Origin: Psammoneis japonica
Taxonomy: Eukaryota
Length of the DNA stretch: 64,000 nt
Direction of reading: 5' to 3'
Assembly: GCA_008632985.1 (NCBI GenBank)
Contig: QPGO01000002.1
Coordinates: 620,001-684,000 of the forward strand
Part shown: positions 18,147-63,505 of the stretch, piece after piece
How the letters are laid out: each line of letters starts with the position of its first letter
Position numbering within the stretch: position 1 is the first letter of the stretch
Program-made: the position numbers and the translations under genes
Notes under the pieces: generated by a model
Told to the model about the DNA's origin: nothing
Seen by the model: only the letters and a program-made list of their open reading frames with translations
Databases searched by the model: none

Positions 18147-18178
18147 ATAAACTCTATACCGCATAATGCGTTTGCTTT

Positions 18179-26104: not shown

Positions 26105-26239
26105 CTCTGTAGAGTAAGAGGTAACAGGCCAAAAATTGTAGAGAACTTTTTTGAGATAGTAACTTTGAGGCTTGAAGCAAAACTACTGCGTCCCTAGTTT
26201 CGAAGCGCTAGAGAAGTTTCTTCAGGAAGTATGACTTGT

Positions 26240-32992: not shown

Positions 32993-33440
32993 TGTCGAGG
33001 GCCCACTGGAGATTTGCCTATCGCTCTCCCATTTTCAATCTCCTCATCTCTCCCGCACCTCGCATTTTATTACTTCGTGTAGGCCCTAGGAACCTATCAC
33101 GATGCTGTGTGCCTACAACGACGGATTTCATCGATTTTGGGGTTGAACTTGTGAAAACGGAGATAAACGACAGAAACCCAAAATTGAAAATCACCAAAAC
33201 GCCCGGCCGAGACCTCTGAGCGAGACACCAGAACAAAAAAAAGATACGGTAGCAGATAGTCGTACGGTAGCTGGTAGTGGAAGTGAAGCTACTTGCTAAT
33301 CTAGAGACAGGCCTGACAATGGGTGTTGTCGGATCAACCGTCAAGACATGTATTGAATGCTATAGGTTAAGAATAGCTATCAGGGACAGGAGAAAGGACA
33401 AGATGGATATGCTTGACATTTGAAGACGAACCATGCGCTG

Positions 33441-34640
33441 TTAATTCGGCGTGGTGGCATTTATGGAATTGTTGAAACTGCGCACGCCTTCTTTCCCGTT
33501 GTCAATATTGATTTGCATAGAGTCGCTCATATAGTGCCAGATGTAGCTGGCAAAGTTACTGGTAGAGTGAATGAGTGTATCACATTTTTGAACCAGACGA
33601 AAAATGGATAGCATGACGATCACCTCCAGTTTCGGATCCTTGGATGGGGTCTGGTTTTCCCATCCTCCTTCAGTGCCACGATGGCGTGGTCTATCCAAAT
33701 AGACCCACTTATAATCAGGATATCGAGAATGTGCTTCTTCGATTGCATTTTGATCGTCGGTCAGCAGAAAAATGCTTCGATCATTTCTGTGTAAAGAACG
33801 ATTTCGTTCCGTAGCTGCCTCAATGTACTCTTGAATCTCGTGGTACTTTCGTGAAAACTTGCCGTGCAGGACCACATCAGCTCGACGGACATGAATGGCC
33901 GCACACGGTGAGGGTAGATTTACGGAATTGGTGGAGTATTCATAAACGGCGCGTCTCAACCAGGTTTGTGGGCGGGTAGCATACTCGTATACCCAGCCCG
34001 CCATGGGCTGCTGAATACGCGGGGAATGATTTTTCGCAAGAAGATCATTCACCACTTTCTCTCTAGGAATATCATCTGGTACCTCACAAGATGATATATT
34101 CAGAAAGTAACATGACATATCCTTTCTCGGGCACACCGGGTTGCTACCATCCTGTTTGTTTGCCGCATAATGCCAGTGCTGTATGTCATGCAATTCTACA
34201 GGTTGCTTCGTTTCGAAGGCAAAGAGAAGTCCATCGTTCACATTTAAAAAGTCAGCTCCCCACCCCGACGACCACATCTGTTTGATTACAAGTGTAGAAC
34301 AGTTCCCGTTGTGTTGAATGTCGTGCAGTTCCCGCATGAAACTTGCTTTGGCTTCGTCTTCCATGGGCGATAAGCAATAGTGCGTGTCGTTCTCCAACGA
34401 TACAAACCAGTCAGGATTGCTGGTCCACCAGCCATCAATGTTCTTTTCCCACTCTACACAGAAAGCCGTTGTTTGATTTCCTTTTGGCATTTGATTGATG
34501 ATGGCGGAAAATTCACGGTCGCCACTGGATGCAAAGACTGCAAAGATGTGACGCGCTCTCGTGTTGATAAGAGTCGAAAGACTGATCACAACGACAACAG
34601 CAGCTATCAAGATTGCTGTCTTTGGTGATGATAATGGCAT
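33441..34640 (-). CDS. Alpha-1,6-fucosyltransferase-like protein, paralogue 2
   Basis: Same motifs (AIHVRRAD, IFLLTDD, HSTSNF). The likely start MPLSSPK precedes a TM helix. Confidence 0.75.
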   Translation of the reverse strand: MPLSSPKTAILIAAVVVVISLSTLINTRARHIFAVFASSGDREFSAIINQMPKGNQTTAFCVEWEKNIDGWWTSNPDWFVSLENDTHYCLSPMEDEAKASFMRELHDIQHNGNCSTLVIKQMWSSGWGADFLNVNDGLLFAFETKQPVELHDIQHWHYAANKQDGSNPVCPRKDMSCYFLNISSCEVPDDIPREKVVNDLLAKNHSPRIQQPMAGWVYEYATRPQTWLRRAVYEYSTNSVNLPSPCAAIHVRRADVVLHGKFSRKYHEIQEYIEAATERNRSLHRNDRSIFLLTDDQNAIEEAHSRYPDYKWVYLDRPRHRGTEGGWENQTPSKDPKLEVIVMLSIFRLVQKCDTLIHSTSNFASYIWHYMSDSMQINIDNGKEGVRSFNNSINATTPN

Positions 34641-35147
34641 GATGATGAATGGAAGGTACAGTTGGTATGCGGTGGATGCGGGTTTTGCCTGTTGCGCCTG
34701 TTGCGTGTGTTTGCTTGAGCGCCCCCCGATGATGAGGGGTGCGGTGCTGATGCCTGCCGTGATGGCGGCTCTAGACTCTATGTAGAGTGAAGCAACGATA
34801 ACAACGCGTTTATGTGAAACCACATGTTTGAAGGCTTTCATAATTGGCCACATCTATGTCTTCGAATGTTTTGATGTATTGTAAGAAGAAACGACAACGG
34901 CAATTGTTTGGATCGCGGAATATAATTTAGCTACAGAACTTATAAATAAAAAATTCAAGGCGAATCACGTTTGGAAGATCATTGTCACATTCAGAGATGA
35001 TGAAATGAATAAATGACCCGTGGGTCAATCGCTCACAAAATCGTAACACCGCGAAACAATGATGACTGACTCCGTTGTTGTGAATCGTACCATTGCACCT
35101 CAAAGAACGTAATATGGTTTTTCAAAAGCCATTTGAGAACAATAAAT

Positions 35148-36344
35148 ATGAAAACTTCCTTGCGCCACACTCTGATCATGTTAATCACGTTAAATGTCAT
35201 CCCTGTGGTGAGATTGATAAGATTGATGCGGCTTCATACCAATACCGAGTTCAAGGAGGAAACGGAAATGATGGAACCTGCTGAGAGAGTCACAACCAAG
35301 CCGGTTGTTAATGACACGCCTTCAATATGTGCATCATGGGACCAAAACATGGATAAGTGGTGGGGCAGCCACCCTGATTGGAGTCTGACGTTTGAAAATG
35401 ACACGCACTACTGTTTTGCTCCGATGGAAGACAAGGCCAAGGCAAAGTTCTTTCGAAGACTGCATGACGTCCAGCAAAATGGAAACTGCTCTAGACTGAT
35501 TGTAAAAGAAATGTGGTCCTCGGGATGGGGTGCAGATTTTGGTAACGTAAACGATGCCCTTCTTTTTGCGCTCGAGTCGAAATTTCCAGTCCAGATGCAT
35601 ACATTGAACCAATGGCATTATGCAGCAAACAAAAAGGATGGCAGCCGACCCGTATGCCCTAGAAAAGATCTGTCATGCTATTTCCTAAACATTTCTGCTT
35701 GCGAGGTACCAGCTGATATCCATATTACCAGAGAAAATTTTGTCAACGGAATGATTGCGAGGAAGCGCTCTTTCTATTTCAGGAGACGTAAAGCAAGATG
35801 GGCATACGAATATGCTACCCGGCAGCAAACATGGCTTCGACGTGCTGTTTACGAGTACTCTGCCAAAATCAAACTGTCGTCACCATGTGCTGCGATGCAT
35901 GTGCGTAGAAGCGATGTTGCGTTACACGGCAATTGGTCAAGGAAGTATCACGAGATTCAAGAATACGTTGATGCTGCCGCGCAACACAACCTTTCTTTAC
36001 ACAATCGATCCATCTTTCTTCTGACAGACGATCAAAATGCCGTCGATGAAGCAATATCGCAATTTCCGTACTACAAGTGGGTTTATCTTGATAGACCGCG
36101 TCACCGTGGTGCCGAGGGAGGGTGGGAAAACCAAATCCCTTCCAACGATCCGAAACAGGAGGTTCTAGCGATTCTTGCGACGTTTCGTCTTGTCCAACAA
36201 TGCGATGCGCTCATCCACTCCACCAGTAGCTTTTCTCATTTTCTCTGGCACTACATGAAAGATCCTGTGCGCATCAACCTTGATCTAGGAAAAGAAGACG
36301 AGGTTGTGTACAACTCAAAGTATTCCAAAAAGCGGCCAACCTAA
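35148..36344 (+). CDS. Alpha-1,6-fucosyltransferase-like protein, paralogue 3
   Basis: Same motifs (AMHVRRSD, IFLLTDD, HSTSSF). Confidence 0.75.
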   Translation: MKTSLRHTLIMLITLNVIPVVRLIRLMRLHTNTEFKEETEMMEPAERVTTKPVVNDTPSICASWDQNMDKWWGSHPDWSLTFENDTHYCFAPMEDKAKAKFFRRLHDVQQNGNCSRLIVKEMWSSGWGADFGNVNDALLFALESKFPVQMHTLNQWHYAANKKDGSRPVCPRKDLSCYFLNISACEVPADIHITRENFVNGMIARKRSFYFRRRKARWAYEYATRQQTWLRRAVYEYSAKIKLSSPCAAMHVRRSDVALHGNWSRKYHEIQEYVDAAAQHNLSLHNRSIFLLTDDQNAVDEAISQFPYYKWVYLDRPRHRGAEGGWENQIPSNDPKQEVLAILATFRLVQQCDALIHSTSSFSHFLWHYMKDPVRINLDLGKEDEVVYNSKYSKKRPT

Positions 36345-38708: not shown

Positions 38709-39882
38709 GCTGATTTTGGGTGGTGTGGGAACGATAGTATTGTCATTGCAACGGGTTCACACACTGTACTTGTCAAAACAACGGCACACCCAGAAACTCG
38801 CCAATCATGGCTCCGCGCCTCTCATGCTTTTTTTTTTTGCGGCGAGAACTAGAGAAAAGATGTTTTGACGTTTTTCCCCCTAAATCTGACGAAACCATGA
38901 CGGTCAGACTTCCACGTAGGATTTGTACAGCATTCTACGCAATGCGATCAACATTCAACATGGACCATGACGGCGGCGGATGCGTGCTGTCGTTTGTGCT
39001 TTGATGCTGAAAGTTTGATGCGTTGTCGTCATTACACGCTAGCTGCAGCGTGCCAATGTCATCGCATGTCGAAAGCACAGTGAAACTCGCAAAGATAGTG
39101 CACACGCTCTGAATGTCAAGACAGAAACAACGACAGCAATTTTTTCTCAGAAGAGAGCTCAAGACGAACTGTTTTTGAGCCCAGGCAGTTGCAACAAGTT
39201 CTAGAGAGAGATTCCGGCGCAGCTCTTTTTCTTCGACAATCCCAAAGATTTAAATTCCATTACATCCATCAGCTCGGTGAATGTTTCTGCAGAGCGTTTG
39301 GAAAATGCAAAAGACGAGGTCCGACACAATCACAAAAGAGCCTCATGGATGGAGCGGATTTGCGCGTGGCAGGTTTTGAGCACGAGAACTCTTGATCCCG
39401 CTTTCTGCAGTCATTGGCAGCAACATTGATGAAAGGTTTATCTTTTCATTAGGGTGCTCGATGTTGTATTGTTGTTTGATCCCTTGTTGGACATCGAGGT
39501 GTGGACAGTCAGTGTCGACACAGCAGGTGCACATGGTGGTCTCGCGTCAAAATAGACGGGAAAAAAGCGCTCTTTAGCACAATGGTACGAAGGGTCGACA
39601 AGCTTTCCATTTGTTTACTCCTAAATAGCTTGGAATCATTAGCTGATTGCGATGATCCCGAATAAGTTGGACTTGGGCATTGCGGCGATAAGTCGTAGCG
39701 ACATGGCGACGGCCAGTCGCCCAATTGTGAATCATTCGACACGACTCCAATTTGCGAACCCTTCAAAACGCGAAGCGCATCGGCGGTGGCCACGGCGCGT
39801 GGACACTCTCCTTGCGGCACGACTGTTATTGTCACGATACACAGTAATACCAATCAAAAATCCAAGAAATGCATTTGGACCT

Positions 39883-42145
39883 ATGAGCAACATGAAGCCA
39901 GCCTTGTTATTAAAGGATAGACAAAAAAGCAGCAAACCCTTTGTGTCTATCAATCCCTTCGAGCCTCGACCGGGGCATTATCTGTCTTGGAACGGTGTTG
40001 ACGTGAAGGTTTCACGCCGGCAAAAGCACCAGCATGACACATTGCACATTCTTTGTAACCTTTCAGGGGTGACAAAACCTAGCGAGCTTACTTGTATCAT
40101 GGGGGAGAGTGGCTCAGGCAAGACAACGCTGCTAGACTTCTTGGCGGGGAGGCTCGCATCATCCGTCAGCAAGAGGGGTATGGATGTCAAAGGAGATATT
40201 TACATGGATGGTGAGAAGATCGATCCAACATCAATAGCTTTCCAGAGAAAGGTAGCCTACACGGAACAGCATGATAACATATTTGCCACTGCAACTCCCC
40301 GCGAAGCCATCTACTTTGCTGCAAGGTTGAGACTTTCTCGTACGATAGGTGACGAGGACATTGCCGTACTGACGGACTCGATTCTCGACGAACTGCATCT
40401 GTCCGAAGTGGCTGACTCACTCATTGGAGGAGATCACCTCAGAGGATTGAGTGGAGGAGAGAAACGCCGTGTCGCGTTAGGTGTTCAGCTGGTTATCCGT
40501 CCCAGTATGCTACTCCTGGACGAGGTGACGTCTGGTCTTGATAGTAAAAATGCCGCTTCAGTGATCATGTCCTGTAAGAAAGTAGCGGAAAGTGGCGCCA
40601 CAGTCATCATGGTGATCCATCAGCCGAGCAGCGATATATTCAGTATGATGGACAAACTTATCCTACTGGAACGAGGACGCTGCATGTACAATGGGGCAAC
40701 CTCGGACGTTCCTGCATATTTTGAACTTAGAGGTTTCCCCGTCCCGGCTCACTACAATCCTGCAGATTGGATTATCAAGGTGCAGCTCGAGATTGAAGCA
40801 TCAGGCTACCTTTCCGTTCAATTAGGAAGTGACGACAATACTGCTGTATCAATGACAAGAAGAACTGGGAGCTCAAGTGACACTGAAGAGTTTCAGCGCG
40901 TCTCTCTTTGGAAGGAGACAGCCGAACAGGTCCGTCGAGACACCAAGAATCTTACTCGAGACGGCATGGGTCTGCTGATCCGATTTGGGACACTTACTGC
41001 CGGATCGGCGCTTCTTGCAATAGCGTACGCAGGTGTCGGGTCGGACTCTCTGGATAGTGTGTTGAGTTTCTCTTCCCATGTTGGAGCACTCTTTCTGGTT
41101 CTTGTTAGCAGCCTCATCATTCTGCAGCTCACGATCGTGGACTTCAGCTTGGTTCGCGAAGTGTATGTCAAAGAGCTGAAGACCGACCACTATCGTATTT
41201 TCTCACGTACGTCAAACTCTCATCGCTTTCTCTTTCTTGTACAATCTCTCGTCTAACGATTCTTTCTATCCACTTTCTCCTTCAGTCGGTCTCACGAAGA
41301 CTTTGTACGAGGCATGGTCGACCTTTTTGCAATGCCTTATGGTTATGCTTGTCATATATTGGAGCTTAGATCTCAATGGACGGTTCTGGTACTTACTTCT
41401 CGTCCTTTATGCTGTTACTATGGCGAACCTGTCTTCCGCCATTGCTGCAGGTTGTGTGACGTCGGTAAGTGAACCGCATGAGGCTGTCAGAATCAGATGA
41501 AAATTGCTTTCCATGTCAAAACTAAACGATTTCTTGCATGTAAGTTAGAACCCCGCAGATGCCAAGGAGCTAATGCCGATGGTCCTTTTTCCCCAGCTTC
41601 TCTTTTCCGGCTTTTTCGTCAACATTGAAGATATGCCAAAATGGATAGCGTGGATGCAGTACTTGATGCCTATGACCTATGCTTTCCGGCTCGCCATTGC
41701 CGAGGAGTTTGCCGATTGTTTTGACGTCGGTTCCGTCTTTTGTATCGAATACCTTGAGTCACAGGATGCAACTGGCTCCGAGGACGCGGAATACTGGATG
41801 GCCTTGCTAATCTTATTCGCAGGAGTCCGGTGCCTGGCCTTTTGTTGCTGCGTCGCCGCGCAAGGTGCAGCAAGATCTTGGGGCACTTCAACAAATGGAG
41901 ACAATAAAAAAATAGTAAGCAAGCCGAGGCAAACATGCAAGAATGAAACGAACTGTTATTTTCCTCGTAGGATGAAAGATATAGAAAGAAGTAAGAAACG
42001 TCCTATGGCGCGCTATACGACTCCCGCTCTTTTTGTTTGCTACGTTGTGCCAATTGCTACACGTATGCATTTGCACTGGTCGCTTACTTTTGAGGACATG
42101 GAGACCGTCATCAACGTTTCGAAAGTCACTTCCCCATCCTTATGA
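39883..42145 (+). CDS. ABCG (White-type) half transporter (introns 41207-41285, 41465-41548; 3' end uncertain)
   Basis: Walker A GESGSGKT, LSGGEKRR, LLLDEVTSGLDS, IHQPS, NPADW, and an ABC2 membrane domain (PQLLFSGFF, W..W..Y). Confidence 0.9.
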
Positions 42146-42599
42146 CCACATCTCCTTTACGATCATGCTTGAATGGTTTCCGTTGTGTAGAATGTTATGC
42201 AGTTCCCTGGGGGAAAAGAAATTTGCGTTGGTCTCGTTTTTCCATGGGCTCGGGCTCCGACGACACAATTCCAGTCAGGATAGCTCGTCCACCATGCATC
42301 CATGTGTTTTTGTTCCACTCAAAACAGGCAATTGATTTATTGATGATGACAGACAGTTCAGAGCAGTCATTGGATTCATGCAGCAGGTGTGCCGCCGCAT
42401 GCTGTCATGTTGTCATGTTGATGAGGGTCGAAAGACTGATGATTCGTTCGGGCAACAATGGCAGTTGTCAGTGCACTGCAGTTTCTGGTGGCCAGAACGG
42501 CGTGACGGTGAGTTGCTCATTGGACAATGCTTGTGAAGACACGTTTGGCAAGAGCAACAGGTGACACAAGCTGCTGTGACATCCAGAGAGTGGAGGGAT

Positions 42600-43240
42600 G
42601 GAAGTGTTGTCCCCCCAACAGCAGCAGACTTGAGCTTCCAAACTCCAGAGTGAAACGACCCTGTGATGGCACCAACCAACCTGACAACTGCAAACTGAGG
42701 GCACTGGTGGTGTCTGGTGGACCCCAGGCAACACTTTGAGAACTGTGGTTGAGCATTGCAAGGTCTGTCTTGTGGTGTTGTGGCCCCATGTCACCTCATC
42801 TCCAACTGCACAGTGGGAGCAGACTTCTTGACTTTCCCAACTCCAGAGTGCAGGGACCCCATGTGGAACCAACCAACCTGACAGCAGCAAGAACAAGGGC
42901 ATTGGTGGTCTCTGGTGAGCTCTTGACACTTTGGCAACTGTGGTTGGATCATGCAAGGTTGATGTTGTGGTGTTGTGGCCCCATGTCACCTTGTCCCCAA
43001 CAGGAGAAGACCAAAAGAATGCCTTGCAGTGAAAGGCTCCCATGATGGCACCAACCAACCTGACAGCTGCAAGCTGAAGGTGTTGGTGGTCTTTGGTGGG
43101 CCCCAGGTGCAACTTCAAGAGCTGTTGTTGTGCATTGCAAGGTTGATCTTGGGGCATTGTGGGCCCATGATGTTGTCTTGTCCCTCGTCTCCAACAGCAG
43201 CAGACTTGAGCTTCCAATCTTGAGAGTCAAAGGATCTTGT
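42600..43240. repeat. Tandem array of about 190-200 bp units (about 3 copies)
   Basis: Recurring gcagactt..ccaaactccagagtg..catgatggcaccaaccaacctgaca..ccccagg..cattgcaagg..gccccatgtcacc. Confidence 0.85.
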
Positions 43241-43344
43241 GACAGCGCCAGTCAACAACTGTGTGCTCCGAAGATGCCAAGACAAGAAAATGTGACAGCA
43301 CTTTTCTCAAGAGCTTGAGACCAGTTGTTTGGCAGTTGCAGCGA

Positions 43345-44135
43345 ACCAAAAATCCAAGAAGCGCGCCTTTTAGCTTGGTGCCATCATGGCCACGCTGCAA
43401 GAAAAGCCAGCAGGGGCTTTTTGCTGTCAAAGGACAAAAGAGACAAAAGGGCAACACAAACCCTTTTTGTGTCTGCCAGCCCCTTTGAGCCTTGACTGCT
43501 GGGGCAGCACCATCTGTCTTGAGAGTGACGGTGTTGACAAACAGATTTCACACTGGCAAAAGCACCAGCACCAAACATTGCACACACGTTCTTTGCAGTC
43601 TTTCAGGGTCAGGAGGAGGGGCAACACCCAGCAAGCTCTTGCTTGTGTCATGGAAGAGAGTGGCCCAGAGAGACAAGACAATGCTGCCTGGCTTGTCAGC
43701 AGGGCCACACTCCCACATCATCCACTGCAAGAGAAGTGCGGACATCTGGAGAGACACCATTTGTGCAAATGGTGAGAAGATCAACCCAAAATGCAGCAGC
43801 GCTTTCCAAAGAAAGGCAGCCTGCACCATGGAACAGCATGACAACATGCTTGCCACTCCTGCCCCAATCCCCACAAAGCCACTTGCTTTGCAGCAAAGTT
43901 GAGACTTTCCTGCACAACAGGTGATGACAAGAATGTTGCCAAACTGGCAGATTTGATGCTTGATGTGAGCTGCACAATCTGCCTGAAGTGGCTGACTTGC
44001 TCATTGGGGGGGAGACCAAACCTCAGAGGATTGAGAGGAGGAGAGAAACACTGCACCACATCAGGTGCATGGCTGGCTGTCTGCTCCAACATGCTCCTCC
44101 TTCTAGATGAGGTGATGTCTCTGGTCTTGACAGTG
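43345..44135 (+). pseudogene. Hypermutated partial copy of the ABCG gene (matches about 39853-40545)
   Basis: Shared anchors: aaaaatccaagaa, ggcaaaagcaccagca, ggtgagaagatc, ggaacagcatga, gttgagacttt, cctcagaggattgag, tctggtcttga. It has many frameshifts. Confidence 0.9.
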
Positions 44136-45599
44136 CAGCACATCTGGAACCAAGAGGCTGCACATGCAGCAGAACAACCATGGATGTTCTTGAACATTTT
44201 GAGTGGAGAGGTTTCCCTGCCCCAGCTCACTGCAGTCCACAGCTGCTCTCATTTGGAACTGAAAGTTGCTGAACAAGAAGCCTGTGTTCTTGTCAAGTGC
44301 TCATTCATGGTGAACAAATGGATTTCAATGATCAACCAAATTGGCAAAGCAGGAAACCAGACTCAAGGAAATTTGGTCTCTCACAGCACATGGGCTCTTG
44401 AAAAGATTTGTTTTGAACCAGGCCACAGCACAACAACCACGAAGGTTGGGACATCAATGGTCAACAAGTTGGCAAAGTGAAAAACCACAATGAATGCAAC
44501 ACATGGCTCATTTCTGTGCACCCACACCCACAAGTTGATCCAACCAATTGTTGTTGTTTGTTGGGACTGTGGAGTGTGTCAACAATTTGAAAGTTCTTCA
44601 TTCATCAGTTGGCTTGCATTTTGCACCTTTGGTTTCCAACAATGTTTGCTTTCTGCTCATGCAATGTTTGACAACATTTGGCACATGCTCTCATGCTCTC
44701 ACTCCATTCTGTCATTTCATTGCCTTTGCTCCAACTGTTCTTCAAGCTGCCACCCCATTGTCTGCTGCCCCGTTGTCTCTTGGCTGCAGTTTGTCTTGCA
44801 TCTTGGTGTTCTTGGCTGTGCTGGCACTGGGCAGTGTTCCAATCTTTTGTGTTTCAAAGAGAGTCAATTTTTGTGACAGATTTTCATTGCAGGATGTGAC
44901 AGCAAAATCCCTGCCAGAAGACAACAGAGAAGTTGTTGGAGGTTGGCATGTTTTCTTTGGCAAGTGTGATGGCACAATGCTGCTGTTTTTGCCCACCTGT
45001 GTGCAGTGTTGAAGCGCACTTTGTTTCTCATCCTTGGCTGTTTTTGTCAACTTGTCTGAGGTTCAAGAAATGAAAAAGCACAAAAGGAAAAGCTGCCTGC
45101 TCCTGCATCACTCTTTTGACTTGTTGCCCCCCTTGTCACTCTTGTTGCCTTTCCCAAAGCATTTTTTGTTGGCATGTGCAGAGTCTTGGTGGATGCTGCT
45201 GGCATCTTCCTTCGATGTTGTCATTGTTCGTGTGCTGCTTGGGTGCATCCTGTGTTTTGTGCTCTTTTGTGTGGCAGTGATGTGCATTTTTGGTGCTGTG
45301 CTGAGCCAGTTGGCCTGGCAATCATTGCTTGCATCATTTGCAAGTTGTCAATTTTTTTGCTTTTTGTTGCAGCATTCATTTCAAAGTTTTGTGTTGTTTG
45401 AATCAACTTCAGTGAGTCATTTTGTTGGCATGCATTGCCAACACATTTTGCTTGTGAGTTTTCTTTCATTTTGCAGCTTTGCATGTTGAGTGGTCTTTCA
45501 ATCAGATGCAGTGCACCTGTTTTCAAAGAAGGTTTGTGTCTCAGTTTTTGTGATCTCAGTTGGCTCTCTCATCAAAAATGAATTTTCACATGTGTGCAT

Positions 45600-46620
45600 G
45601 GCAGTGCCAACAACCAACCCAATGAGCAATGGCAGAGGACATTGGTGGTCTCCTCTGGCAGGCCCCAGGCAACACTTTGAGAACTGTGGCTGGGTGTTGC
45701 AGGTTGACCTTGTGGCCTGGTGTTGTGGCTCCAAATTGCTCTGTGTCCAACAGCAACAGAAATGACCCCATGACAGCACCAATCAACTTGACAACAGCAA
45801 GCAGACCGAGGGCACTGGTGGTGCATCTGGCAGACCCCAGGCAAGAACACTTTTAGAGCTGTGGCTCTGAGCATTGCAAGGCTGATGTTGTGACCCTGGC
45901 CCGTGTCACTTTGTCCTCCCCAACAGGAGCAGACTTGAGCCTCCAAACTCCGGAGTGAAAGGAGCCCATGATGGCACCAACCAATCCACAACTGCCAGCC
46001 AGCAAAGAACACTTTTGGTTTTTCATGGCCCCAGGTGACACTTCAAGAACAGTGACTGGACATTGCAAGGACTGTCTTGTGGCATTGTGGCCCCATGTCA
46101 CCTTGTCCTCCTGCCTCAACTGGAGCAGACTTGAACTTCCAAACTCCAGAGCAAAAGGATCCCATGATGGCACCAACTGGCCTGGCAACTTCCAGCAGAT
46201 GATGCTGTTGGGCCCCAGGTGACACTTTGAGAACTGCTGTGGCTGGAGATTGCAAGGTTCATCTTGTGGCACTGTGACCCCATGTCACCTTGTCCCTGGC
46301 TGGAGCAGACTTGAATGTCTTCCCAACTCCAGAGTGAGAGGATCCCATGGTGGCACCAGCCAACAACCCAACGTCAGTGTCTGGTGCTCCCCAGGTGCAA
46401 CCTTGAGAACTGTGGTTGAGCATTGCAAGGTTGGTCTTGTGGCATTGTGTGGACCCAAGTCTCCTCACTCTGAACAGCATTGGCAGATTTGCCTTCCCAG
46501 CTCTAGAGTGCAGGGGTTCCCAATGACAGCAGTGCCAAGTGCCAACCAACCCAACAACTGCCAGCAGAGGACACTCGCTGGTGGCCTCTGGTGGCCCCAG
46601 GCAACAGACTTGTTCCAGAC
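45600..46620. repeat. Second array of the same 190-200 bp unit (about 5 copies)
   Basis: Same anchors as 42600-43240, in the same orientation. Confidence 0.85.
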
Positions 46621-47926
46621 TCAGGTGAGCACACATGTGAAAAAATGCCCATTTTTGCATGAAAAGCACTGTCCAAACTTTCAGTGCTGCCATTTCAACA
46701 TTTGTGTTGTTGTGAGTGGCGCAAATGATCCCATGCATGCATGTGCCCATGCATTCAAAGCTGATAATGGGCCAAGTTGATGATTGTTGGGTGGCACCAC
46801 AAGATGAGAGCTTGGTTTTCCAATGAGCAATTCATGATCACAGTCATGTGCAAATGAAAACACACAAAGCAAACATTCTCATGTGCAAATTTGCTCTTGA
46901 ATGGGCAATGAATTGCACTTTGTTTTTGCACATCAACACAAGTTGCTCTGAACAGATTGAACAAAACATTTGTTGATGACACAGTGCAAGAAGACATGAG
47001 AAGCAATGAAACTCTGCCCACACAATGGTGTGTTGACTTCAAACCCTTTTTCACTGCTTTGTCAACATGACAAACAACTGAAACACTTGCTTCAGTTGAG
47101 GCCATGGAGGGAGTGCACATGGCAATGGAAAAGAGCTTGTCCTTGGAGGCAAACTGTCAATGAAATGAGGCTCACTTGTTGTTGCTGACAGGTCAGTCTT
47201 CTTGTGCTGTGCTGCAGCCTGTGCCAACAATTGTCTTCATTGTCGTCATCAATGACACAGACTGTGTGAAATGCTGTGGTCATGATTGTCGTGTCATTCA
47301 ATTTCCCACAAGGTTGAAGAAAGTGGGCTGTCATGGTCACTTGAAGCCAAGGCTGTTTTGGTGATCAGTTGGCTTGAATTTCATTGACTCATTTGATCCA
47401 TGAACATGACAACTCTAACAAGGTGTCAATGAAGTTGAATGAAAAGCACAAAACAGTTGTTTTTTGTTTAAAAAGGCATGTTTTTCCCACCCCAACAAGG
47501 GGGGAATGGGGGCTGTGCAGCCAATGCCTTGCTGTGGCCAAAGTTGTGAGAGGCATCAACAAAAAATGACTTTGACAAGCTGTGCACAAATCCAGGTGCA
47601 AAACATGTGCCCTTTGACATCCCCACAATTGCTTGCATGAGGGTGCAAATGTGCCACACTTCACAAAAGTCCACTTTTTTGACTTGTGCATGAAGACACA
47701 TGACAGTCATTGTGACAACTTTTTTCTGGTCTGTTGAACTCCTTTTTCTCTGTCAGGCATGATCGGCAGTTCCAAGAACTTTTGCTCGGTGTTTGAATTT
47801 TGAGTCCGAGCTTCCCAAACACATTCCTGTTGTGCACGCCACCATTGCAGGATGCCAATTTGCAAGGAGCACCACGGTTTTGCAGGATGCCGATTTGCAG
47901 GACGCACCACGGTTGGAAATTGCTGT

Positions 47927-48390
47927 GGCCTCTTGGCCCCAATGCAATGACGGACATTGAGCTCCAACATTTGCGCAACACCTTGCCAGATGTGGCTGTC
48001 ATTCAGCAGATCAAAGAGCATCTCTGGCTCTTGGAAACATCATTGCAACCAATGCACATGGCTCTTGTTCATCCTGATGTAGACCGAGAGACAGAAGATG
48101 TGATTTTGGATGTTTTGGGTGCAGAAGTCTTTCAACAGACAGTTGGTGGGCAAGCGCTTGTGGGGAGTTGTTCAAAATTTTCAAACCAAGGCGGCATGGT
48201 GCATCCTCAAACAACTGTGGAAGACATTGAAAAGCTTGGTTCACTGTTGCAGGCACCACTTGCAGCAGGAACTGTAAATCGTGGGTCAGATGTGTTGGGT
48301 GGAGGCATGGTGGTCAATGATTGGTCTGCTTTTGTGGGGTTGGACACTGCCAGAACAGAAATTTCTGTCATTGAGAGCATCTTCAAGCTT
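47927..48390 (+). pseudogene. EIF6: 5'-truncated, hypermutated eIF6 gene fragment
   Basis: [64 protein letters not shown]. There are compensating frameshifts in the SALGN segment. Confidence 0.9.
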
Positions 48391-50430
48391 TTGGGACAGA
48401 GGACAACAGCGCCAACAATTGAGCATTGTTTCAAATGTGAGGAGCTCTCTGATCGATCAGCTTTCGCAAGTGACGAACACGGTGATGCAAAAAGAGCACT
48501 TTAGAATGATCAAAAACACTGAGTTTAAGTGCAGTTTTGCAGCACCAAATTGCACTTCACAACCATGCATCAATTGATGCAACCATTCAAACTGAGGCCC
48601 TTTCAACAGAGAGCAGTGCCAAGCCTTCATCCAGAGAGCAGTGCAGATGTTGTTGAGGAGCAGGAACTGACTGACTTTTTTGCTCCCCCCATTGAGCTGC
48701 ACACCATGATCACAGCTGCAAAAAGGAACTCTGGAGAGGAGTTTAAACTGTGATGTTGTCAGTTTTCTTCTTGTGGTTTCTGGCTTTTACTTCATCGCAG
48801 CTTTTTGGAGCCTGTCTGGTGAGCACTGGCATGCAGTGACTCATTCCCTCAGCAATCTCTTTTGTCCAATCTCACTTCATGCTGCATGCTCAAAAATTGC
48901 TCCAGACATTTCCAGTGCTTCATCGTTGGTCTTCTCAGTCACCTCACACCATTTGACAAGAGCAACAATGCAGCATTTTGAATTGCATCACCCCGGCTTG
49001 AGCAGGACCTCTCTGACTTGGAATCACTGTTCACCTGCTCGTGTTCGTTGTCAAGAATCTGCGTCTTGTTAAAGACCAAATCAAGAACTCTCTCAATCCA
49101 CTGCTTGATGGAGATTGTGCCTTCTTCAGCCCCCACACCAAAATTCTGTCCCATGACTTGATTGAAGGCGAGTTCGCAGCATTCATTCATTGTGTTGAAA
49201 ATCTTCTTTTGCCACACTCGTCCTTAAATTCGTTGTTGGTCAGCTTCCGTCCACTCGATTCCCTGAGTGCCGCTTGGAGCACGAGTGTGGTGACAGTCTC
49301 TTGGTTGCTCTTGTTGCCATCAACCTCACACTGCAGAGAGAATGGTGTGACGTGATCTCAGATGTTGACTTCAAAGTGGCTTCGAACGCCCTTTGCCCCG
49401 CCAAGTTCAACAACAATGTGTGACTTCCATGTCCAGGTCGCCACTGAAAAGCGGGAGAGTTCTTGTGCCCACAATGTGCTGCAGCCCAATCTCAACGTCA
49501 TCCACATCTTCACTGACCAGGCGTTGCAGAACTGCAAGGAGAAGTGGCTTGACCATGACTTCGGCGACTCTGCTTGATTGTCAACTGGCGACGGTCCTCA
49601 TTCTTGATGGCCTCATGCACACCTGCTGCCTTTGCAATGTCCACAACCAAGAGAAAAAAATTAGCAAATGAATCATCCCAATCCCTGCCAGTGCAATCTC
49701 GCGGTGCCCACCATTGAGATTTTGAGACAGTTTCCGGCCCTTTCGCTTTCCTTTGAACTTGGCTGTTTTTGGCTCTTTTTTGCTTCCTGTGCCTTCGTTG
49801 AGTTTCTTGTGGAAACAAATGGTCTTCATTCAGCTGGCTAAAATCAGTTGCATTGCAGAGTCCTGCTTTTGCTTTTCTCTCCTGTGCCAACGGCGCCAGT
49901 TTGTCTCGGCTTCTGTGCGCCTGTTTTTGTTGTCGTCGCTTTTCTCTTTTCTGCAGTCGTCTTCAGTGTTTGCACCTGGCTGCTGGGGCCCTCTGCTCTA
50001 GAGCAGCCACTCTCTGTTCTCTCTCCAGGTGCCAGCGTGGGGCAGAAAGGAGTTTGTTTCTACCGCAAGCTGCCGAAGAGCACACCTGAGACCCAACAGC
50101 TGAAACAGCGCGTGATCCCAGCGTGATCAACGCACGTTACCGGTAAAATTCTTTGAAAAACTGATTCCATCCAATGGTGGCGATGTGTATCAACTAAACA
50201 GAGCTTATTCGCCACCAACTTTTCTGCTCAAGACTGAACATAAAATATATTCAAGCATGAATACAAATGAAATGGTTGAAACGTCACGGTGTATCTTCTT
50301 CGTGTCAAGATCCGAAGGCAAAAAGAACAAAGAAGCCCAACAAGTTGAATGAGTGCGGCATCTCTTGTTGGTGCTACGAACAATTCGACGCTTGGATCAC
50401 ATAAAGAATCTGTTGAGAGGTCTGGGTAGT

Positions 50431-54509: not shown

Positions 54510-55751
54510 TCATATTAATGGAGTTTCAGTGCGATATGAACTAGGCCGACCTCGCACGAGGACACAGCATGTGCTACTTGCAATATTGCACAAGTCGCTT
54601 ACTCTGTTCATCAGAATCGGAGCTTTAGGAGATGTCCAAATCTTATATGTACTTACTAACCTGGGGTTCTTAAGGGGTTCGTGCATTTTAACCCACTTCT
54701 GGAACCATGAAGCAGGCTCAAAGTTTTTGGGAAGTTTATCTTTCCAAGCACTAAAGATCACGTCCTTCAATGTGAATCGTGAATACTCGTTGATCAGTTC
54801 CATCGTGTCGGTGCTCGCGAATTCACTGTCAAGCAATCTATCGTGCAATTCGTCAGGAAAGTGCAAAGCTTGTTTCACCAACGCTTCGGTCTTTTTCGGT
54901 TTGGCTTGCAATTTGGATTCGGTCCGTCTCATCTCGTCTTCCAATTCGCTGATTTTGCGTTTCTGACGTGCATTCCTTCTCCTCATTTCCACTCCAGCAT
55001 AGAAAAGATGTGAAATAATATCACCACCGTTTGCAAACAGAGCTTCAACGTTGGTATCGCGGCGAGTCTCTGGCAACAAGAGGAACTTGACCGACCCCCA
55101 AATTCTCGATTTCGCAACGGCTTCTTTCTTCAGCAATGGAACCATCTTTGAGATTAAGTCCAAATCAAACAAATCTGGGAAAAGGCTAAGCAATTCTGCC
55201 AATTTGCGGAAAGCGACTCTTCGCGTGTTTGGGAGATTGTACAAGTCGCTTGAAGCTAGGCTGGAAGCAAATGTTTGGAAAATCCGACGATTTGCTTCCT
55301 TATGTGACACCACTGGTGAACGTTTAGCCCCAATGGGCGGAGGCTGGGTATTGTACTTGATAGACCTCAGATAGGTAGCAAGGACTTTGTCACATTCGTC
55401 CAACATAGTCTTCATTTGGAATTCGTGAAACCACGGAATCAGAACTTCAACATTGTCGCTTGTGATCTTTGCCGCGCCCGCCGTCTCGGGATTAATGAAG
55501 GAATAAAAGAGCTTCCACTCCTCGGGGTCCTTGTCGGGGAAGGCAATCCTCGATTCTTCGCTCTCCTTCATACCGCTGGCGAGCATCGTGTCAAAGTATT
55601 CGCTGGCATAACTCAAGACTACTTTGTAACACGGAAATTCGGTGGCATCTTTTCCGACAACAACCACAACGTCGGGATCCTGGATACGGAGCCGTTTTGC
55701 CGGTGGAGGATTACCTGTTTGATCGTCTGTGTTGGGATTCTCTGTGTCCAT
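54510..55751 (-). CDS. BTB/POZ domain protein
   Basis: PDVVVVVG..EFPCYKVVLSYASEYFDTMLASGMKES..I.FPDKDPEEW..F. Confidence 0.85.
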   Translation of the reverse strand: MDTENPNTDDQTGNPPPAKRLRIQDPDVVVVVGKDATEFPCYKVVLSYASEYFDTMLASGMKESEESRIAFPDKDPEEWKLFYSFINPETAGAAKITSDNVEVLIPWFHEFQMKTMLDECDKVLATYLRSIKYNTQPPPIGAKRSPVVSHKEANRRIFQTFASSLASSDLYNLPNTRRVAFRKLAELLSLFPDLFDLDLISKMVPLLKKEAVAKSRIWGSVKFLLLPETRRDTNVEALFANGGDIISHLFYAGVEMRRRNARQKRKISELEDEMRRTESKLQAKPKKTEALVKQALHFPDELHDRLLDSEFASTDTMELINEYSRFTLKDVIFSAWKDKLPKNFEPASWFQKWVKMHEPLKNPRLVSTYKIWTSPKAPILMNRVSDLCNIASSTCCVLVRGRPSSYRTETPLI

Positions 55752-58771: not shown

Positions 58772-59788
58772 CTAGTATCCCTGACGTTGATTGCGTTCGC
58801 GCTCAAGCCGCAAGCGATACCATTCATCAGGCTCAAAGTATTCGGGAAGCTTATCTTTCCAGTCAGTAAAGATGACGTCCTGCAATTTATCTCGTGAATG
58901 CTCGTCGATCTTTTTCGTCGTGGAGTCGCTGCCCATAGATTCCTTGAAGGCAGTTCACTGTACAATTCGTATGGAAACCGGAAAGCTCGTTTCACTAACG
59001 ATTCGGCCTTTTCCGCCTTTGCTTGCAAAAACCGGTTTTGTTTGGCCTTGTGATTCACTTTCACAGCAGCATGGAGAAGATGTGAAATCATACTACTGTT
59101 GGCAAACACAGCGTCAACGTCGGTAGTATCGAGAGTCCTTGGTAAGAGGGATTTGGCCGACTTCCAAGTAGTCGATTTCGCTACGGCTTCTTCCCTCAGA
59201 AATGGAACCATCGTCGAGATTATGTCGAAATCAAACAAATCCGGGTAAAATTGCAGCATTTGTACCAATTTGCCGAGAGCGGCTCTTTGCGTGTGTCGGA
59301 GATTGTACAAGTCGCTTGAAGACAAATGTTTGTAGAAAGTGCGCATTGACCTTGACGAAGAATTGAGAAAATCGATAGACCTCAGAGAGTCAGCAAGGAC
59401 TTTGTCACATTCGTCCAACATTGTCTTCATTTGGAATTCGTGAAACCACGGTGTGAGAACTTCAACATTGTCCTTTGTGATCTTTGCCGTGCGCGCCGTG
59501 TCGGGATCAATGAAAGAATGGAAAGAGCTTCCACTCTTTCGGATCCTTGTCGGGGAATGCAATCCTGGATTCTTCGCTCTCCTTCATGCCGCTGGCGAAC
59601 ATCGTGTCAAAGTATTCGCTGGCGCAACTCAACACTACTTTGTAACACGGAAATTCGGTGGCATCTTTTCCCACAGCAACCACAACGTCGGGATCCTGGC
59701 TGCGAAGGCGTTTTGCAGGTAGAGGATCACCTGTGTGATCCTTTGAGCTTGGATTTTCCGCTTTTCTTTTTAAATTATCCGCCTCCAT
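58772..59788 (-). pseudogene. BTB protein paralogue with two frameshifts (about 59520 and 58945)
   Basis: Homologous to 54510-55751 along its length, but the homology switches frame twice (KEWKLF / HSFIDP; YSELP / KIDEHSRDKLQDVIFTDWKDKLPEYFEP). Confidence 0.8.
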
Positions 59789-59834
59789 CGTGAAATCCGT
59801 GGGAAGCCTCCTGTCAACTGGAGAGTTGTTGTGA

Positions 59835-60020
59835 CAATTTGAGAGAGCTGCTTCGAAGAATCGCACCGAAACCAAAGAACAATCGTGTCACCCTCAGATT
59901 TTGACGCGACTCACCCTTCCACGCGCAGGCACTGAACAATTTGAGAGAGCGGCTTCGAATTACACTAAAACCAAAGAACAATCGTGTCACCTTGAGGTTT
60001 TGACGCGACTCCTCGCCTTT
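59835..60020. repeat. Two tandem copies of a unit of about 100 bp
   Basis: acaatttgagagagc.gcttcgaa..aaaccaaagaacaatcgtgtcacc..ttttgacgcgactc occurs twice. Confidence 0.85.
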
Positions 60021-60029
60021 TCCTGCAGA

Positions 60030-62030
60030 CGCCACCAGCAATCGGCTTCATGCCAGAGTGCACGGTGCAGGGCCCTGCACACTCCAGGGCACCAGGGCCT
60101 GGGGCTCTGATGCCACTCACTCACTCACTCACTCACTCACTCACTCACAAGTCCTCTCAAGAAAAAAGCAGGGCTGCCATCTTGGCAGTTGATGAGAGGA
60201 GAAGACTGCGATGTTTTTTGCAAGTTGCACAGTGTCTTTCGGTGTTGCTGCAGAGACTCAACACTGGATCTGAGATTCCACCCAGCTCACAAACTCCTTT
60301 TAATTCCGATCTTGAACGAGCACTTCGCAGTTCTCTGCTCTCGTGACCGACTGTGCAACACGTGGTTGACAGTCGCAAACGTTCTGACGAACGGCGCGCG
60401 CTTCGTCACCAGACCCAGAATTGAGCTTTCGGCATGCTGGCGACTCTTCATTTGGGGAGCCTGTCAAGGGCACACATGACAGCTCCAAAAGGTTGTCCAC
60501 CGCTCAGAAAGAGCTGCAGTGCCACGAATTGCAAGACAATTGCGCGATTCACGTGCCCGAAGGGTGATTGTTGAAATTCGAGCTTCGCGCACGTAGAGCC
60601 TGTAGAAAATGCACCAGCCAGCCCGAAGCTCCGATTTTCGTAGATCACGCAGGAGAGCACCACAAGGTCATTTGATGAAATGACTGGGACCAAAATGAAA
60701 ATTTTGACACCACATCACACGCAGAATTGACATCTGCGCGAAGGGAGAATGTTGCTTCGGGCAACGACATTCCACCTTCGGGCACGTGAATCGCGCAATT
60801 GTCTTGCAATTTGTAGCATCTCATCGTCGATGGCATTGGTTGGTGCTTGGTGCACGTTAATGGTGGTCGTGCGCGCGGTCGATGGTCGCGTTTTAGTCTT
60901 GGATGCGACACGAAGCGGAAAACAAAAAAAACGCACGCGGTGCATGCTGGCGCTGTTACATTGTTGCTGGGTGTTGTTGTCTCCTGCGATGGCATGGAGG
61001 CATGCACAATCTTGTAACCACAGAATCAGCCCCAAAAGAGTCGGCCATCACAGGCTACAATCGCCACTGTCAGGGCCCTGTGTGCCGAAACTCCGAGGTC
61101 TGATCTTGCTTTCCGGATGGACAGCTTGCCAAGTTTCATTTTTGGCATGCCAGCAGAAAGTCAACATGCTTCTACATGCGACAGTTTCTCACACATGCAT
61201 GCGAACATCACGAACTCTGCGAGCTCCAACACGAGAACAACACAAAGCACGAAGAGTTTGCGAGAGAGCGAATGGCGTTGCTGACACACTGTGAATGTAA
61301 AGTAAAAATGCCAAAACATTGTTGTTGCACAACATGTGGATGGTTGGTCTGTTGGCAGACAAAATGTGTCGCCTTCAAAGCTGGTCAGAAGCTTCAACAG
61401 ACTGCACAGCTGTTTGCATGTTGTTGGGTCGTAACAGAGGCCTGCGTCCCCCACTTTGAATCATTCTCAAATGATGACCACAGCCAACTCCTCCACCAAT
61501 GTTGCTGTCATCTCCTGTGTCAAGTTGCTGTTCAATTCACACAATGCTCTCTGCAGCAGGAGAGCAAATGACGAGACTTCTAGCTCGTCCAACAAGAGGA
61601 CAATGCCACCGACTCAACAACTCTCCAGCATTTCTATCTCAGTCATAGATTTGTCATGTGACTGGTCAACATCCACAACCACAAATGTTTTTGGAAGTGT
61701 TGCTTGTTTGCACCCACAAAGCAGAGCCCTCCAAACTGCTGCTGCATGGAGAAAAGGACGACAAAGCAGCCAGTCACAGTTCCTGGATGAGCGACCTTTT
61801 CAGAACAAGTCCTCCTTGGGATCAGGCTGAATTCACTGTCATGCCACCAATTTGAGCTCTGCTGAGTCGTCCATGCCGGTTGTGTTTGCCACAGTGCTGC
61901 TTGAGTAACTTCCAATGGGGCCAACGCGTCATTTGCGGTTCTTGCATCCACAGAAACACATTCGGGGTGAGTCCTCCTTGGCCTCCAGCTAACTCCACCG
62001 TCATGCCACCACATTGAGAACTGCTGAGTC
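60030..62030. mobile_element. TpA-depleted domain 5 (CpG largely retained); contains a (CTCA)n microsatellite at about 60114-60148
   Basis: TA is scarce, ORFs are Tyr-poor, and the domain contains a mutated MITE. Confidence 0.65.
60520..60818 (-). mobile_element. MITE copy A (TpA-mutated)
   Basis: TIRs of about 44 bp (aattgcaagacaattgcgcgattcacgtgcccgaagg); inverted homologue of 62625-62935. Confidence 0.9.
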
Positions 62031-62364
62031 TTCCATGCTGAATGCTAACGTCGTAACACCGCTAAGGATGCTTCAAATGGGATCAACACATTGTCGCAAT
62101 TCCAACACCGACCATTGTGCGTCATGTTGATGGGTCCAACGGCGTCTTTTTATGGCGAAACAAAACCCCTGTAACTCGGTCACGACCGGCCATTGCTGAG
62201 TCTTCCATGCTGCATACTAACGCATAATAGCGCTAAAGACACTTCAAATAGGGTCAACATATCGTCTCAATGTCAACACCGACCATTGTACGTCACGTTG
62301 ATGGGTCCAACGGCGTCTTTTCATGGCGAAACAAAACCCCTGTAACCCGGTCACGACCGGCCAT
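62022..62364. repeat. Tandem duplication of about 171 bp, with more degenerate units toward 61830
   Basis: tgctgagtcttccatgctg..caacaccgaccattgt..gatgggtccaacggcgtcttt..cggtcacgaccggccat occurs twice. Confidence 0.85.
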
Positions 62365-62624
62365 TTTCTTGAAGCGATTGTCAGTTACATTCTTGAACTC
62401 CACGGTAAGGGAGATATGATGTGGAGAGGTAGCGTCAGAGTACAAACAACGCCGTCGTATCATCACCATTGTGAGTGCGGCATGCACGGGTAGGTCGCCG
62501 TACAAATTTGAATGAGCTGATGGGTCCAACTGCCATTGCACTACAAACGTACGTAGAAACTGGTATGTACAGATCTACACAACTTTGTACTGGCATACCA
62601 AAAATGAACTCGGCAAGCTGTCCA

Positions 62625-62935
62625 TACTACAAATTGCAAGACAATTGCGCGATTCACGTGCCCGAAGGTGGAATATCGTTGCCCGAAGCAACATTCTCCC
62701 TTCGCGCAGATGTCATTTCTACGTATGATGTGGTATCAAAATTTTCATTTTGGTCGTCTAAATCGTCCCAGTCATTTCATCAAATGACCTTGTGGTACTC
62801 TCCTACGTGATCTACGCAAATCGGAGCTTCGGGCTGGCTGGTACATTTTCTACAGGCTCTACGTGCGCGAAGCTCGAATTTCAACAATCACCCTTCGGGC
62901 ACGTGAATCGCGCAATTGTCTTGCAATTCGTAGTA
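62625..62935 (+). mobile_element. MITE copy B (unmutated; TA at both ends, as for a Tc1/mariner target site)
   Basis: tactacaaattgcaagacaattgcgcgattcacgtgcccgaagg ... ccttcgggcacgtgaatcgcgcaattgtcttgcaattcgtagta. Confidence 0.9.
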
Positions 62936-63109
62936 CAAGTAGTAGCCTACGGTACGCACGCACGCTACGCACGCACGAGGGGAGCAGGCAGGAGGCCTTT
63001 TATTTTGTCGAGCCTCCTCCGTCACAATAGTCACAACATGCCATCAATCTCATAGCCATCATTCACTCTTGAATTCTGTACCAGCGAAGTCCTTGGTTGC
63101 TGATTGGCA

Positions 63110-63505
63110 ATGAGCAATAACACACCACAAGTCGAGAACCAGGCTATACTTTCTTCCATGGCAAATCCGCAAGCGGCAGATCGATTGAAAAATCGCAGTA
63201 GACAGCGGCTCGTCCAGTTTGGGCCGTTTTACGTTTACTTTAATAACTGGTTCCTGTGTGTTCCAACTGCTCATCCTCAAGAAAATCACAATGAAAACAA
63301 TGACAGGAGAAGAGAACTACCAAGCGATGACAATGATGATGGTTCTGAAGACGAAGAGGCGAATGATCCAGACGACATGGAGCATGATCCGTATGCCGAC
63401 ATGCCCGATTTACAGGACAGCGACGGTCATATTGTTCACTATCACTCTAACCCCCAAGGGGATGAAAAATTTGATTCCTTGGAAGGGACGCCCTGTACGT
63501 GGTGA
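63110..63505 (+). CDS. Hypothetical acidic protein
   Basis: ORF of about 130 aa with a D/E/N-rich tract and no recognised domain. Confidence 0.35.
   Translation: MSNNTPQVENQAILSSMANPQAADRLKNRSRQRLVQFGPFYVYFNNWFLCVPTAHPQENHNENNDRRRELPSDDNDDGSEDEEANDPDDMEHDPYADMPDLQDSDGHIVHYHSNPQGDEKFDSLEGTPCTW

Follow-up and report, generated by a model that had tools for sequence, protein, structure and literature searches.

A probable case of block-targeted TpA hypermutation in a diatom genome

Positions 620,001 to 684,000 of contig QPGO01000002.1 of Psammoneis japonica (64,000 nucleotides, here called the window, whose own numbering is used throughout) contain two copies, A and B, of a miniature inverted-repeat transposable element (MITE) that differ from one another almost exclusively at TA dinucleotides. 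Which of the two copies changed, by what process, and why was the other one spared? The answer favored here is that copy A probably lost its TA dinucleotides to a hypermutation aimed at the block of DNA in which it lies. The window is diatom nuclear DNA: it carries long single-exon open reading frames (ORFs) with MCM, HSF, bZIP, BTB, pyruvate kinase and FUT8-like domains, and the closest named relatives of its MCM, pyruvate kinase and eIF6 proteins are all from diatoms (40-76% identity). When the window was scanned with Rfam and for tRNAs, there were no matches.

Two copies of a TA-duplicating MITE

The features needed to compare the two copies are as follows (TSD, target-site duplication; TIR, terminal inverted repeat).

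60520-60818, + strand: MITE copy A, read here as the mutated copy; TSD TG at 60520-60521, element at 60522-60816 (295 bp), TSD CA at 60817-60818.
60522-60571, + strand: left TIR of copy A; partner at 60767-60816, 52-nt arms, 90% complementary.
62625-62935, - strand (inverted with respect to A): MITE copy B; TSD TA at 62625-62626, element at 62627-62933 (307 bp), TSD TA at 62934-62935.
62627-62668, + strand: left TIR of copy B; partner at 62892-62933, 44-nt arms including a TSD base, 98% complementary.
62753-62764, + strand: 12-bp segment present in B and missing from A, an indel seen in the A/B alignment and in the family contigs.

Copies A and B are separate insertions of a MITE of ~300 bp that is present in high copy number, duplicates TA and is of the Tc1/mariner-Stowaway type. 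The element has terminal inverted repeats and a TA target-site duplication, and is short, non-coding and present in many copies; a TA target is the hallmark of MITEs derived from Tc1/mariner elements. The whole of copy B is predicted to fold into one long hairpin (-78.5 kcal/mol, z = -11.6). Contigs from three sequencing runs (X1, X2 and X3) reach a summed depth of 3000-20000 on the element and ~50 on its unique right flank, although summed depth over repeats is not copy number. Family contigs stop exactly at 62625 and 62935, and the TSD of the family is therefore TA. The likeness to Stowaway-like MITEs (~300 bp, TIRs of 44-52 nt, TA duplication, hairpin fold, many copies) is one of structure, and no autonomous partner was identified. 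A 22-mer of the TIR was found at two loci in metagenome contigs; as they match in the 22-mer only, they were rejected as chance matches rather than MITE copies. A 24-mer of the TIR had no match in GTDB genome contigs or IMG/VR.

The two copies were aligned with MAFFT (60505-60835 on the + strand with 62610-62950 on the - strand) and the alignment was scored by script, which gave 12 substitutions and the 12-bp indel across the element and its TSDs. Ten of the 14 TA dinucleotides of B are altered in A, nine of them to CA and one to TG, and none of the 22 CG dinucleotides of A differs between the copies. Read on the + strand of copy A, C in A stands against T in B at 60523, 60612, 60650, 60658, 60708, 60718, 60722, 60768 and 60817, and G in A against A in B at the single site 60521; the two substitutions away from TA are transversions (A 60638 / B 62817 and A 60727 / B 62716). 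All ten transitions fall at Y-A steps (Y, pyrimidine; R, purine), which account for 59 of the 274 scorable sites (p = 2e-7); ten of the 12 substitutions lie within the 28 bases of the 14 TA (p = 3e-9); and altered bases number 10 of 28 in TA against 0 of 44 in CpG (Fisher 2e-5). With these p-values, the TA context of the differences cannot be put down to chance.

The direction of the change was given by the family contigs. X2 contig 11, which is 271 nt long with a depth of 114.6, reaches from 62639 to 62921. Set against B, it has T>A at 62716, has C>A at 62817 and lacks the 12 bp of the indel, and no other difference separates the two. These three differences are the states that copy A itself has at its transversions and indel; nevertheless, the contig has TA at all seven of the sites altered in A within this interval. 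X3 contig 17 (62639-62881) and X1 contig 6 (depth 1315, 62676-62755) each have one difference from B and are B-like at the TA sites, and X1 contig 7 (depth 1218, 62818-62921) has none. When copy A is compared with X2 contig 11 in place of B, it has changed at 7 of 20 TA bases and at 0 of 251 other bases (Fisher 4e-9). Copy B, for its part, is the family sequence with a private transversion at 62716 (all six X1 contigs have A there) and with family-polymorphic states at 62817 and at the indel, the deletion having a depth of 800 out of 3380 in X1 and 114.6 out of 129.4 in X2.

Since the abundant family contigs carry TA, TA is, on the evidence of these sequences, ancestral, and it is copy A that has mutated. 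The target site points the same way: TG...CA is no direct duplication unless both of its halves were once TA, so the TSDs of A were originally TA, and because TSD positions lie outside the element, these two changes were not inherited from a source copy. An earlier note on this DNA, made from a hand alignment, had listed 10 of 14 TA changed, about 22 CpG intact, two transversions, a 12-bp deletion and a 9:1 strand ratio, and alignment and script returned every one of these figures. By the comparison of A with the family contig, TA also changed far faster than the background. The note had named a family consensus with CA or TG at these sites as the outcome that would speak against it; at the seven internal sites covered by the family contig, the base pair is TA.

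TA-poor blocks and the gene copies within them

The following features concern the DNA around the two copies and the other TA-poor DNA of the window (o/e, ratio of observed to expected counts).

59966-61906: TA-poor block around copy A; 20 TA in 2 kb, o/e ~0.16, none of them RTAY.
61117-61189, + strand: relative of the repeat flanking copy B, matching 62555-62625 inverted; inside the copy A block, 300 bp to the right of copy A.
62500-62624: left flank of copy B, belonging to a second repeat family of many copies; its summed depth is 700-6000, and that of unique DNA ~50.
1-5153: block nearly devoid of TA and CG; 6 TA, CG o/e 0.01-0.13, CA/TG o/e 1.6-2.2.
42338-49662: second TA/CG-depleted block, with internal repeats and broken gene copies.
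43420-44260, + strand: hypermutated partial copy of an ABC-transporter gene, with ~70% identity to the gene part at 39900-40780 and 59 TA/CG sites converted to CA/TG.
47797-48501, + strand: eIF6 pseudo-copy (Pfam 9.6e-33; PDB 6lqm chain 6, 8e-57).

Copy A lies in DNA that is itself poor in TA, with a CG o/e of 0.92 in 60001-61000 and 0.48 in 61001-62000, whereas the surroundings of copy B have a TA o/e of 0.75. Copy B has acquired a private substitution and copy A has none; age therefore does not account for the TA loss from A, and place does. The same change is found in the block beyond the element: the relative of the B flank repeat at 61117-61189 has CA at two sites (61146 and 61155) where the flank of B has TA (GTAT and GTAC). 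In the contigs of this second family, all six of the transitions among the rows listed are exchanges between TA and CA/TG. Copy B may have inserted into or beside another element. The process is thus tied to the DNA block and not to the MITE, a point that the earlier note had missed. No internal control in the window is cleaner than the MITE pair: its ancestor is known, its background change is zero, its CpG is intact, and one copy is inside a block and the other outside.

The two larger blocks, 1-5153 and 42338-49662, are depleted to a far greater extent (TA o/e 0.00-0.08, CG 0.01-0.58, CA and TG near 2), and their sequence is complex rather than made of simple repeats. The window-wide values (TA o/e 0.44, CA/TG 1.33) average two kinds of DNA, i.e., the depleted blocks and the rest, where TA is 0.5-0.7 and CG ~1. 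As the large blocks are without TAA and TAG stops, they contain many spurious long ORFs: among 80 stop-free frames of at least 90 amino acids from the three TA-poor stretches, 76 had no Pfam match, one matched eIF6, one was the end of a BTB paralogue and two had weak, sub-threshold matches. No transposase or reverse transcriptase was found by Pfam among those 80 frames. A further FUT8-like fragment (42029-42327) lies at the edge of the second block.

The partial ABC-transporter copy can be compared directly with its parent gene (39652-41256), which lies 3.5 kb away with its TA, its CG and its open frame all intact. The gene has 24 TA, none of which is still TA in the copy; 20 have become CA (11) or TG (9). 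Of its 30 CG, 29 are now CA (16) or TG (13). Transitions per base amount to 0.41 at the T of TA and 0.46 at the C of CG, against 0.12-0.17 elsewhere. In the eIF6 pseudo-copy, the N-terminal ~70 residues are garbled or absent, and the C-terminal 140 residues differ from ten diatom eIF6 proteins mostly by Y>C, R>Q, V>A, V>M, T>A and G>R. These are the replacements that conversion of TA and CG to CA and TG within codons would be expected to give, the codons being assigned by way of the protein comparison. Between repeats inside the depleted block, CA opposite TG makes up 21 of 91 double differences, the next class having 6 (two repeat pairs; a self-overlapping third was dropped), as expected if ancestral TA or CG had been converted independently in each repeat after duplication.

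Loss of TA and loss of CG do not coincide entirely. When the window was divided into 160 intervals of 400 bp, 27 were low in both TA and CG, 12, situated at the edges of blocks and around copy A, were low in TA and had normal or intermediate CG, and one was low in CG without TA loss; i.e., 27 of 28 CG-low intervals are also TA-low, and 12 of 39 TA-low intervals keep CG. The TpA process is therefore separate from CpG decay and either reaches further or runs ahead of it. The independence of the two had been proposed in the earlier note, and the proposal stands, with 0 of 22 CpG altered in copy A and 12 intervals of one kind against one of the reverse.

Several other features of the window were recorded in passing. 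A tandem array of ~170-bp units at 61808-62365, with neighbors 81-89% alike, spans the edge between TA-poor and TA-normal DNA; five of its units were aligned across that edge and were too diverged for a gradient to be read. Two direct repeats of ~78 bp at 59834-60011 have, twice, CG in one and TA in the other at the same dinucleotide, which implies two successive transitions by way of CA/TG. In ordinary DNA, a tandem duplication of ~300 bp (8197-8790, 86% identity) has 3 of its 15 transitions at Y-A steps, and the BTB paralogue pair at 54704-55742 and 58819-59758 has no directional TA loss. The TA-richest stretch of the window is an inter-ORF gap at 23935-24592 (TA o/e 1.71). TA-free patches that retain CG occur at 15074-15769, 26230-26744 and 27930-28214; inverted repeats of 31-38 nt lying 620-680 bp apart at 15705-16445, beside a 695-bp TA-free patch, possibly mark another small element. 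Three FUT8-like paralogues (two on the - strand, one on the + strand) at 31763-36344 have 67-71% DNA identity.

Flanking bases, strand and competing explanations

The TA dinucleotides that survive in the blocks are not a random sample. Residual TA were listed for 1-5100, 42400-48800 and 59950-61950. In the two large blocks, 13 of 19 are YTAR, against 270 of 1716 in ordinary DNA (p = 4e-7), and across all three blocks none of 39 is RTAY, against 495 of 1716 (p = 2e-6). The MITE behaves likewise, with RTAY altered at 7 of 7 sites and other TA at 3 of 7, and the four surviving TA are all GTAG. In the ABC copy, sites with one favorable side were informative: RTAR became CA rather than TG in a ratio of 5:1, and YTAY became TG rather than CA in a ratio of 8:1 (Fisher 0.011). 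Adenine was mutated at 21 of 37 T[A]Y, 6 of 29 T[A]R and 35 of 135 [A]Y without a preceding T. Taking the ABC copy, the MITE and the flank family together, 17 of 20 such half-sites obey the rule (p = 0.003). The base that is hit is the T of R-T-A or, seen from the opposite strand, the A of T-A-Y; RTAY is a good site on both strands and YTAR on neither, and RTAY is therefore lost first and YTAR last. CpG outcomes followed no consistent flank rule. Among residual CG, RCGY is over-represented (27 of 78), a trend opposite to that of TA.

The flank rule bears on the question of strand. The earlier note had read the 9:1 ratio in copy A as a sign of strand-coordinated bursts, and such a ratio would be left by a single-strand editor, i.e., a deaminase acting on single-stranded DNA, an R-loop or an RNA intermediate, in one coordinated episode. 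The ratio has a two-sided binomial p of 0.021. At the symmetric RTAY sites of A it is 6:1 (p = 0.125), which becomes 8:1 (p = 0.039) when the flank sites 61146 and 61155 are added; CA/TG counts in 100-bp bins of the copy A block are slightly over-dispersed (chi2/df 1.68, p = 0.03), and the zero background change favors an episode over slow decay. However, as the flank rule turns R-T-A into RCA and T-A-Y into TGY, two of the nine T>C changes in A are dictated by context, and the test was chosen after the data had been inspected. In addition, the 59 converted sites of the ABC copy comprise 30 CA and 29 TG (TA>CA 13 : TA>TG 13; CG>CA 17 : CG>TG 16) in 31 runs, where 30.5 were expected (P = 0.60), and counts per 100-400 bp in the large blocks show no over-dispersion (chi2/df 0.8-1.3). 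The burst part of the claim thus finds support, in that many TA changed over zero background, and the strand-coordinated part, as it was stated, finds little; strand coordination in A is a weak, post-hoc hint, and a single-strand editor is rather unlikely to be the cause. Both strands are hit, and it is the DNA itself that is changed rather than a retro-copy made from a single edited strand.

The explanation that fits copy A best is block-targeted, post-insertion hypermutation of TpA to CpA or TpG, which is probably correct. Copy A would have inserted and then been rewritten in this way. The same process would have stripped the two larger blocks of TA, accompanied by another conversion, slower or more restricted, of CpG to TpG/CpA, and copy B would have escaped by lying outside the targeted block rather than by being younger. 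The agent may be an enzyme that acts on the DNA of silenced or duplicated regions, as repeat-induced point mutation (RIP) does in fungi. A-to-G change follows from deamination of adenine, and T-to-C change has no comparably simple chemistry. The simplest reaction would be hydrolytic deamination of the A of 5'-T-A-Y-3' to hypoxanthine, which is read as G; at CpG, cytosine or 5-methylcytosine could be deaminated alongside, by a reaction of the same class that gives CG>TG. Alternatively, T or A might undergo mutagenic modification at TpA in heterochromatin. The more specific proposal, that this is a diatom genome defence which converts the adenine of 5'-T-A-Y-3' to a base read as G on both strands of silenced or duplicated blocks, before CpG is lost, is a tentative one, and less likely than not to be right.

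A number of observations weigh against block-targeted hypermutation. The data come from one 64-kb window and from run contigs of one sample. Those contigs were aligned to 62500-63050 only (copy B and its flanks), and the sequence of copy A is known from the assembly alone; at 62979, a run contig is one base shorter than the window in a run of T, an assembly homopolymer error or an allele, and the assembly is to that extent imperfect. The half-site at 60523 (CTAC to CCAC), one of only three in the MITE, breaks the flank rule. Other recent repeats of the window (8197-8790, 62022-62365, 59834-60011, 61808-62038 and 61117-61189) have 12 of 35 transitions at Y-A steps, which are 22% of sites; with so mild an enrichment, the MITE signal is no general property of repeats. 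In fungal RIP all duplicate copies are hit, and here the parent ABC gene is untouched. Finally, the X1 summary reports eight places with A>G at a share of at least 5%, two of which are among the rows listed, and some family copies may share the states of A, in which case part of its changes could be inherited.

Inheritance of this kind, in which the CA states of A were already present in its source copy as a mutated subfamily, would be strengthened if the other six X1 places were sites of copy A. Among the rows listed, however, there is no A>G at 62675, 62721, 62725, 62735, 62797 or 62805. The two TSD positions and the flank sites 61146 and 61155 carry the same change outside the element, and the whole surrounding block of 2 kb is TA-poor. 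Inheritance is accordingly an unlikely explanation for copy A.

A passive origin would have TpA hypermutable throughout the genome, with genes keeping TA by selection and copy A lying in unconstrained or older DNA. The window-wide depletion of TA and excess of CA/TG, together with a TA o/e of just 0.52 in genic DNA, are in keeping with this. It was possible to examine TA where selection on protein sequence has no hold, as T>C at a TA that spans codon positions 3 and 1 is synonymous in every case. At these 3|1 junctions in 15 Pfam-supported ORFs (7007 codons), TA o/e is 0.64 and CG o/e 0.91, and in 23 inter-ORF gaps of ordinary DNA TA o/e is 0.61, with single gaps at 1.0-1.7. Hypermutability at the level seen in copy A, if genome-wide, would have emptied both junctions and gaps; as TA is kept there, the process is confined to blocks. 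Copy B and its non-coding surroundings also keep TA despite the private substitution of B, of which A has no counterpart. A passive origin is therefore very unlikely.

Two further explanations were considered. In the first, the direction is reversed: copy B was hit by RIP-like C-to-T change at CpA/TpG and copy A keeps the original CA/TG. All ten differences are of the CpA<->TpA form, as they would be from fungal RIP, whose preference for CpA is given in the RIPCAL abstract, and passages of PMC9998398 relate diatom DNMT4 to the fungal RID family. Nevertheless, the high-depth family contigs have TA, and many copies hit by RIP independently would not have ended up identical; the TG...CA of A is not a duplication, and it is the surroundings of A that are TA-poor, those of B being ordinary; and the comparisons of gene with pseudo-copy show TA lost and none gained, which leaves the reverse direction highly improbable. 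The second explanation, that the T>C calls of A are consensus errors of the assembly such as long-read miscalls at a modified base, can draw on the homopolymer indel at 62979 and on the best run containing 63% of the sampled words of 60000-63500, and is barely credible, because the same pattern runs through kilobase-long blocks that contain indels and are 30% diverged from parent genes, which cannot be miscalls, and because TA sites also vary among the run contigs of the flank repeat family.

Comparison with known systems

Block-targeted TpA hypermutation, if it is what altered copy A, belongs to a class of process that is already known, namely the targeted hypermutation of repeated DNA, and there is a real chance that its chemistry is new. 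The known forms of context-specific hypermutation of repeats (RIP, 5-methylcytosine decay and APOBEC editing) are all C-to-T. Erasure of TpA by AT-to-GC change would call for another chemistry, in which adenine is deaminated or T or A in DNA is modified in a mutagenic way. A literature search, mostly at the level of titles and abstracts, found no description of TpA>CpA/TpG hypermutation in diatoms or elsewhere, and no report of 5-hydroxymethyluracil in diatoms. If the reading is true, it would represent a new eukaryotic route to the disabling of duplicated genes and transposons and the first AT-to-GC counterpart of RIP, with copy A as an early stage that precedes CpG loss. It would also account for the extreme local dinucleotide landscapes in this diatom genome, provide a clock-free marker of silenced DNA, and lead to an enzyme that might serve as a natural editor of adenine in DNA.

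The process resembles fungal RIP in that dinucleotide-specific transitions fall on both strands of stretches that contain duplicated DNA, wreck duplicated genes, and accumulate much faster than background change. The differences are that RIP is C>T mainly at CpA and creates TpA, whereas in this window TpA is lost by AT-to-GC change and cytosine is hit at CpG, and that the host is a diatom. RIP of the fungal type was rejected, as TA is lost rather than gained and a parent copy is intact. Targeting of duplicated DNA receives a mixed answer: duplicated pieces of genes occur in the depleted blocks, as do repeats, no duplicate of block 1-5153 was detected within the window, and copy B, although repeated, is untouched. 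Passages of PMC9998398 describe the CpG methylation of diatom transposable elements through DNMT5, and report that many diatoms carry a DNMT4 related to the fungal RID family, whose function is not known. DNMT4 could bear on the CpG arm of the process, and not on the TpA arm.

Decay of 5-methylcytosine at CpG would give the loss of CG to TG/CA in the large blocks, equal on both strands (17:16). It leaves the loss of TA unexplained, and CpG is kept in copy A and in 12 of the 39 TA-low intervals. For the MITE pair it was rejected, since 0 of 22 CpG are changed and CpG depletion is limited to the large blocks.

APOBEC editing of retroelements has been found fixed in genomes (PMC4866542), and the likeness lies in a context-specific hypermutation of mobile elements that leaves a record in the germ line. 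APOBEC editing is a strand-coordinated G>A change on retro-copies, whereas the targets here are a DNA transposon and non-mobile pseudogenes, changed on both strands at TA and CG.

The sequence context recalls that of the RNA adenosine deaminases. No such enzyme was found, no search aimed at one having been made. RNA editing as such, which acts on one RNA strand and would leave a strand-specific trace in the genome, was rejected, because both strands of the ABC copy are hit equally (13:13). ADAR and the ADAT/TadA enzymes prefer a 5' U, the TadA substrate loop is U-A-C-G, and trypanosome ADAT2/3 also deaminates C in single-stranded DNA. The likeness lies in A>G change at an adenine preceded by T and followed by a pyrimidine, as in U-A-C, and deamination would unite the changes at A and at C. 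These enzymes act on RNA and the change here is in genomic DNA, on both strands.

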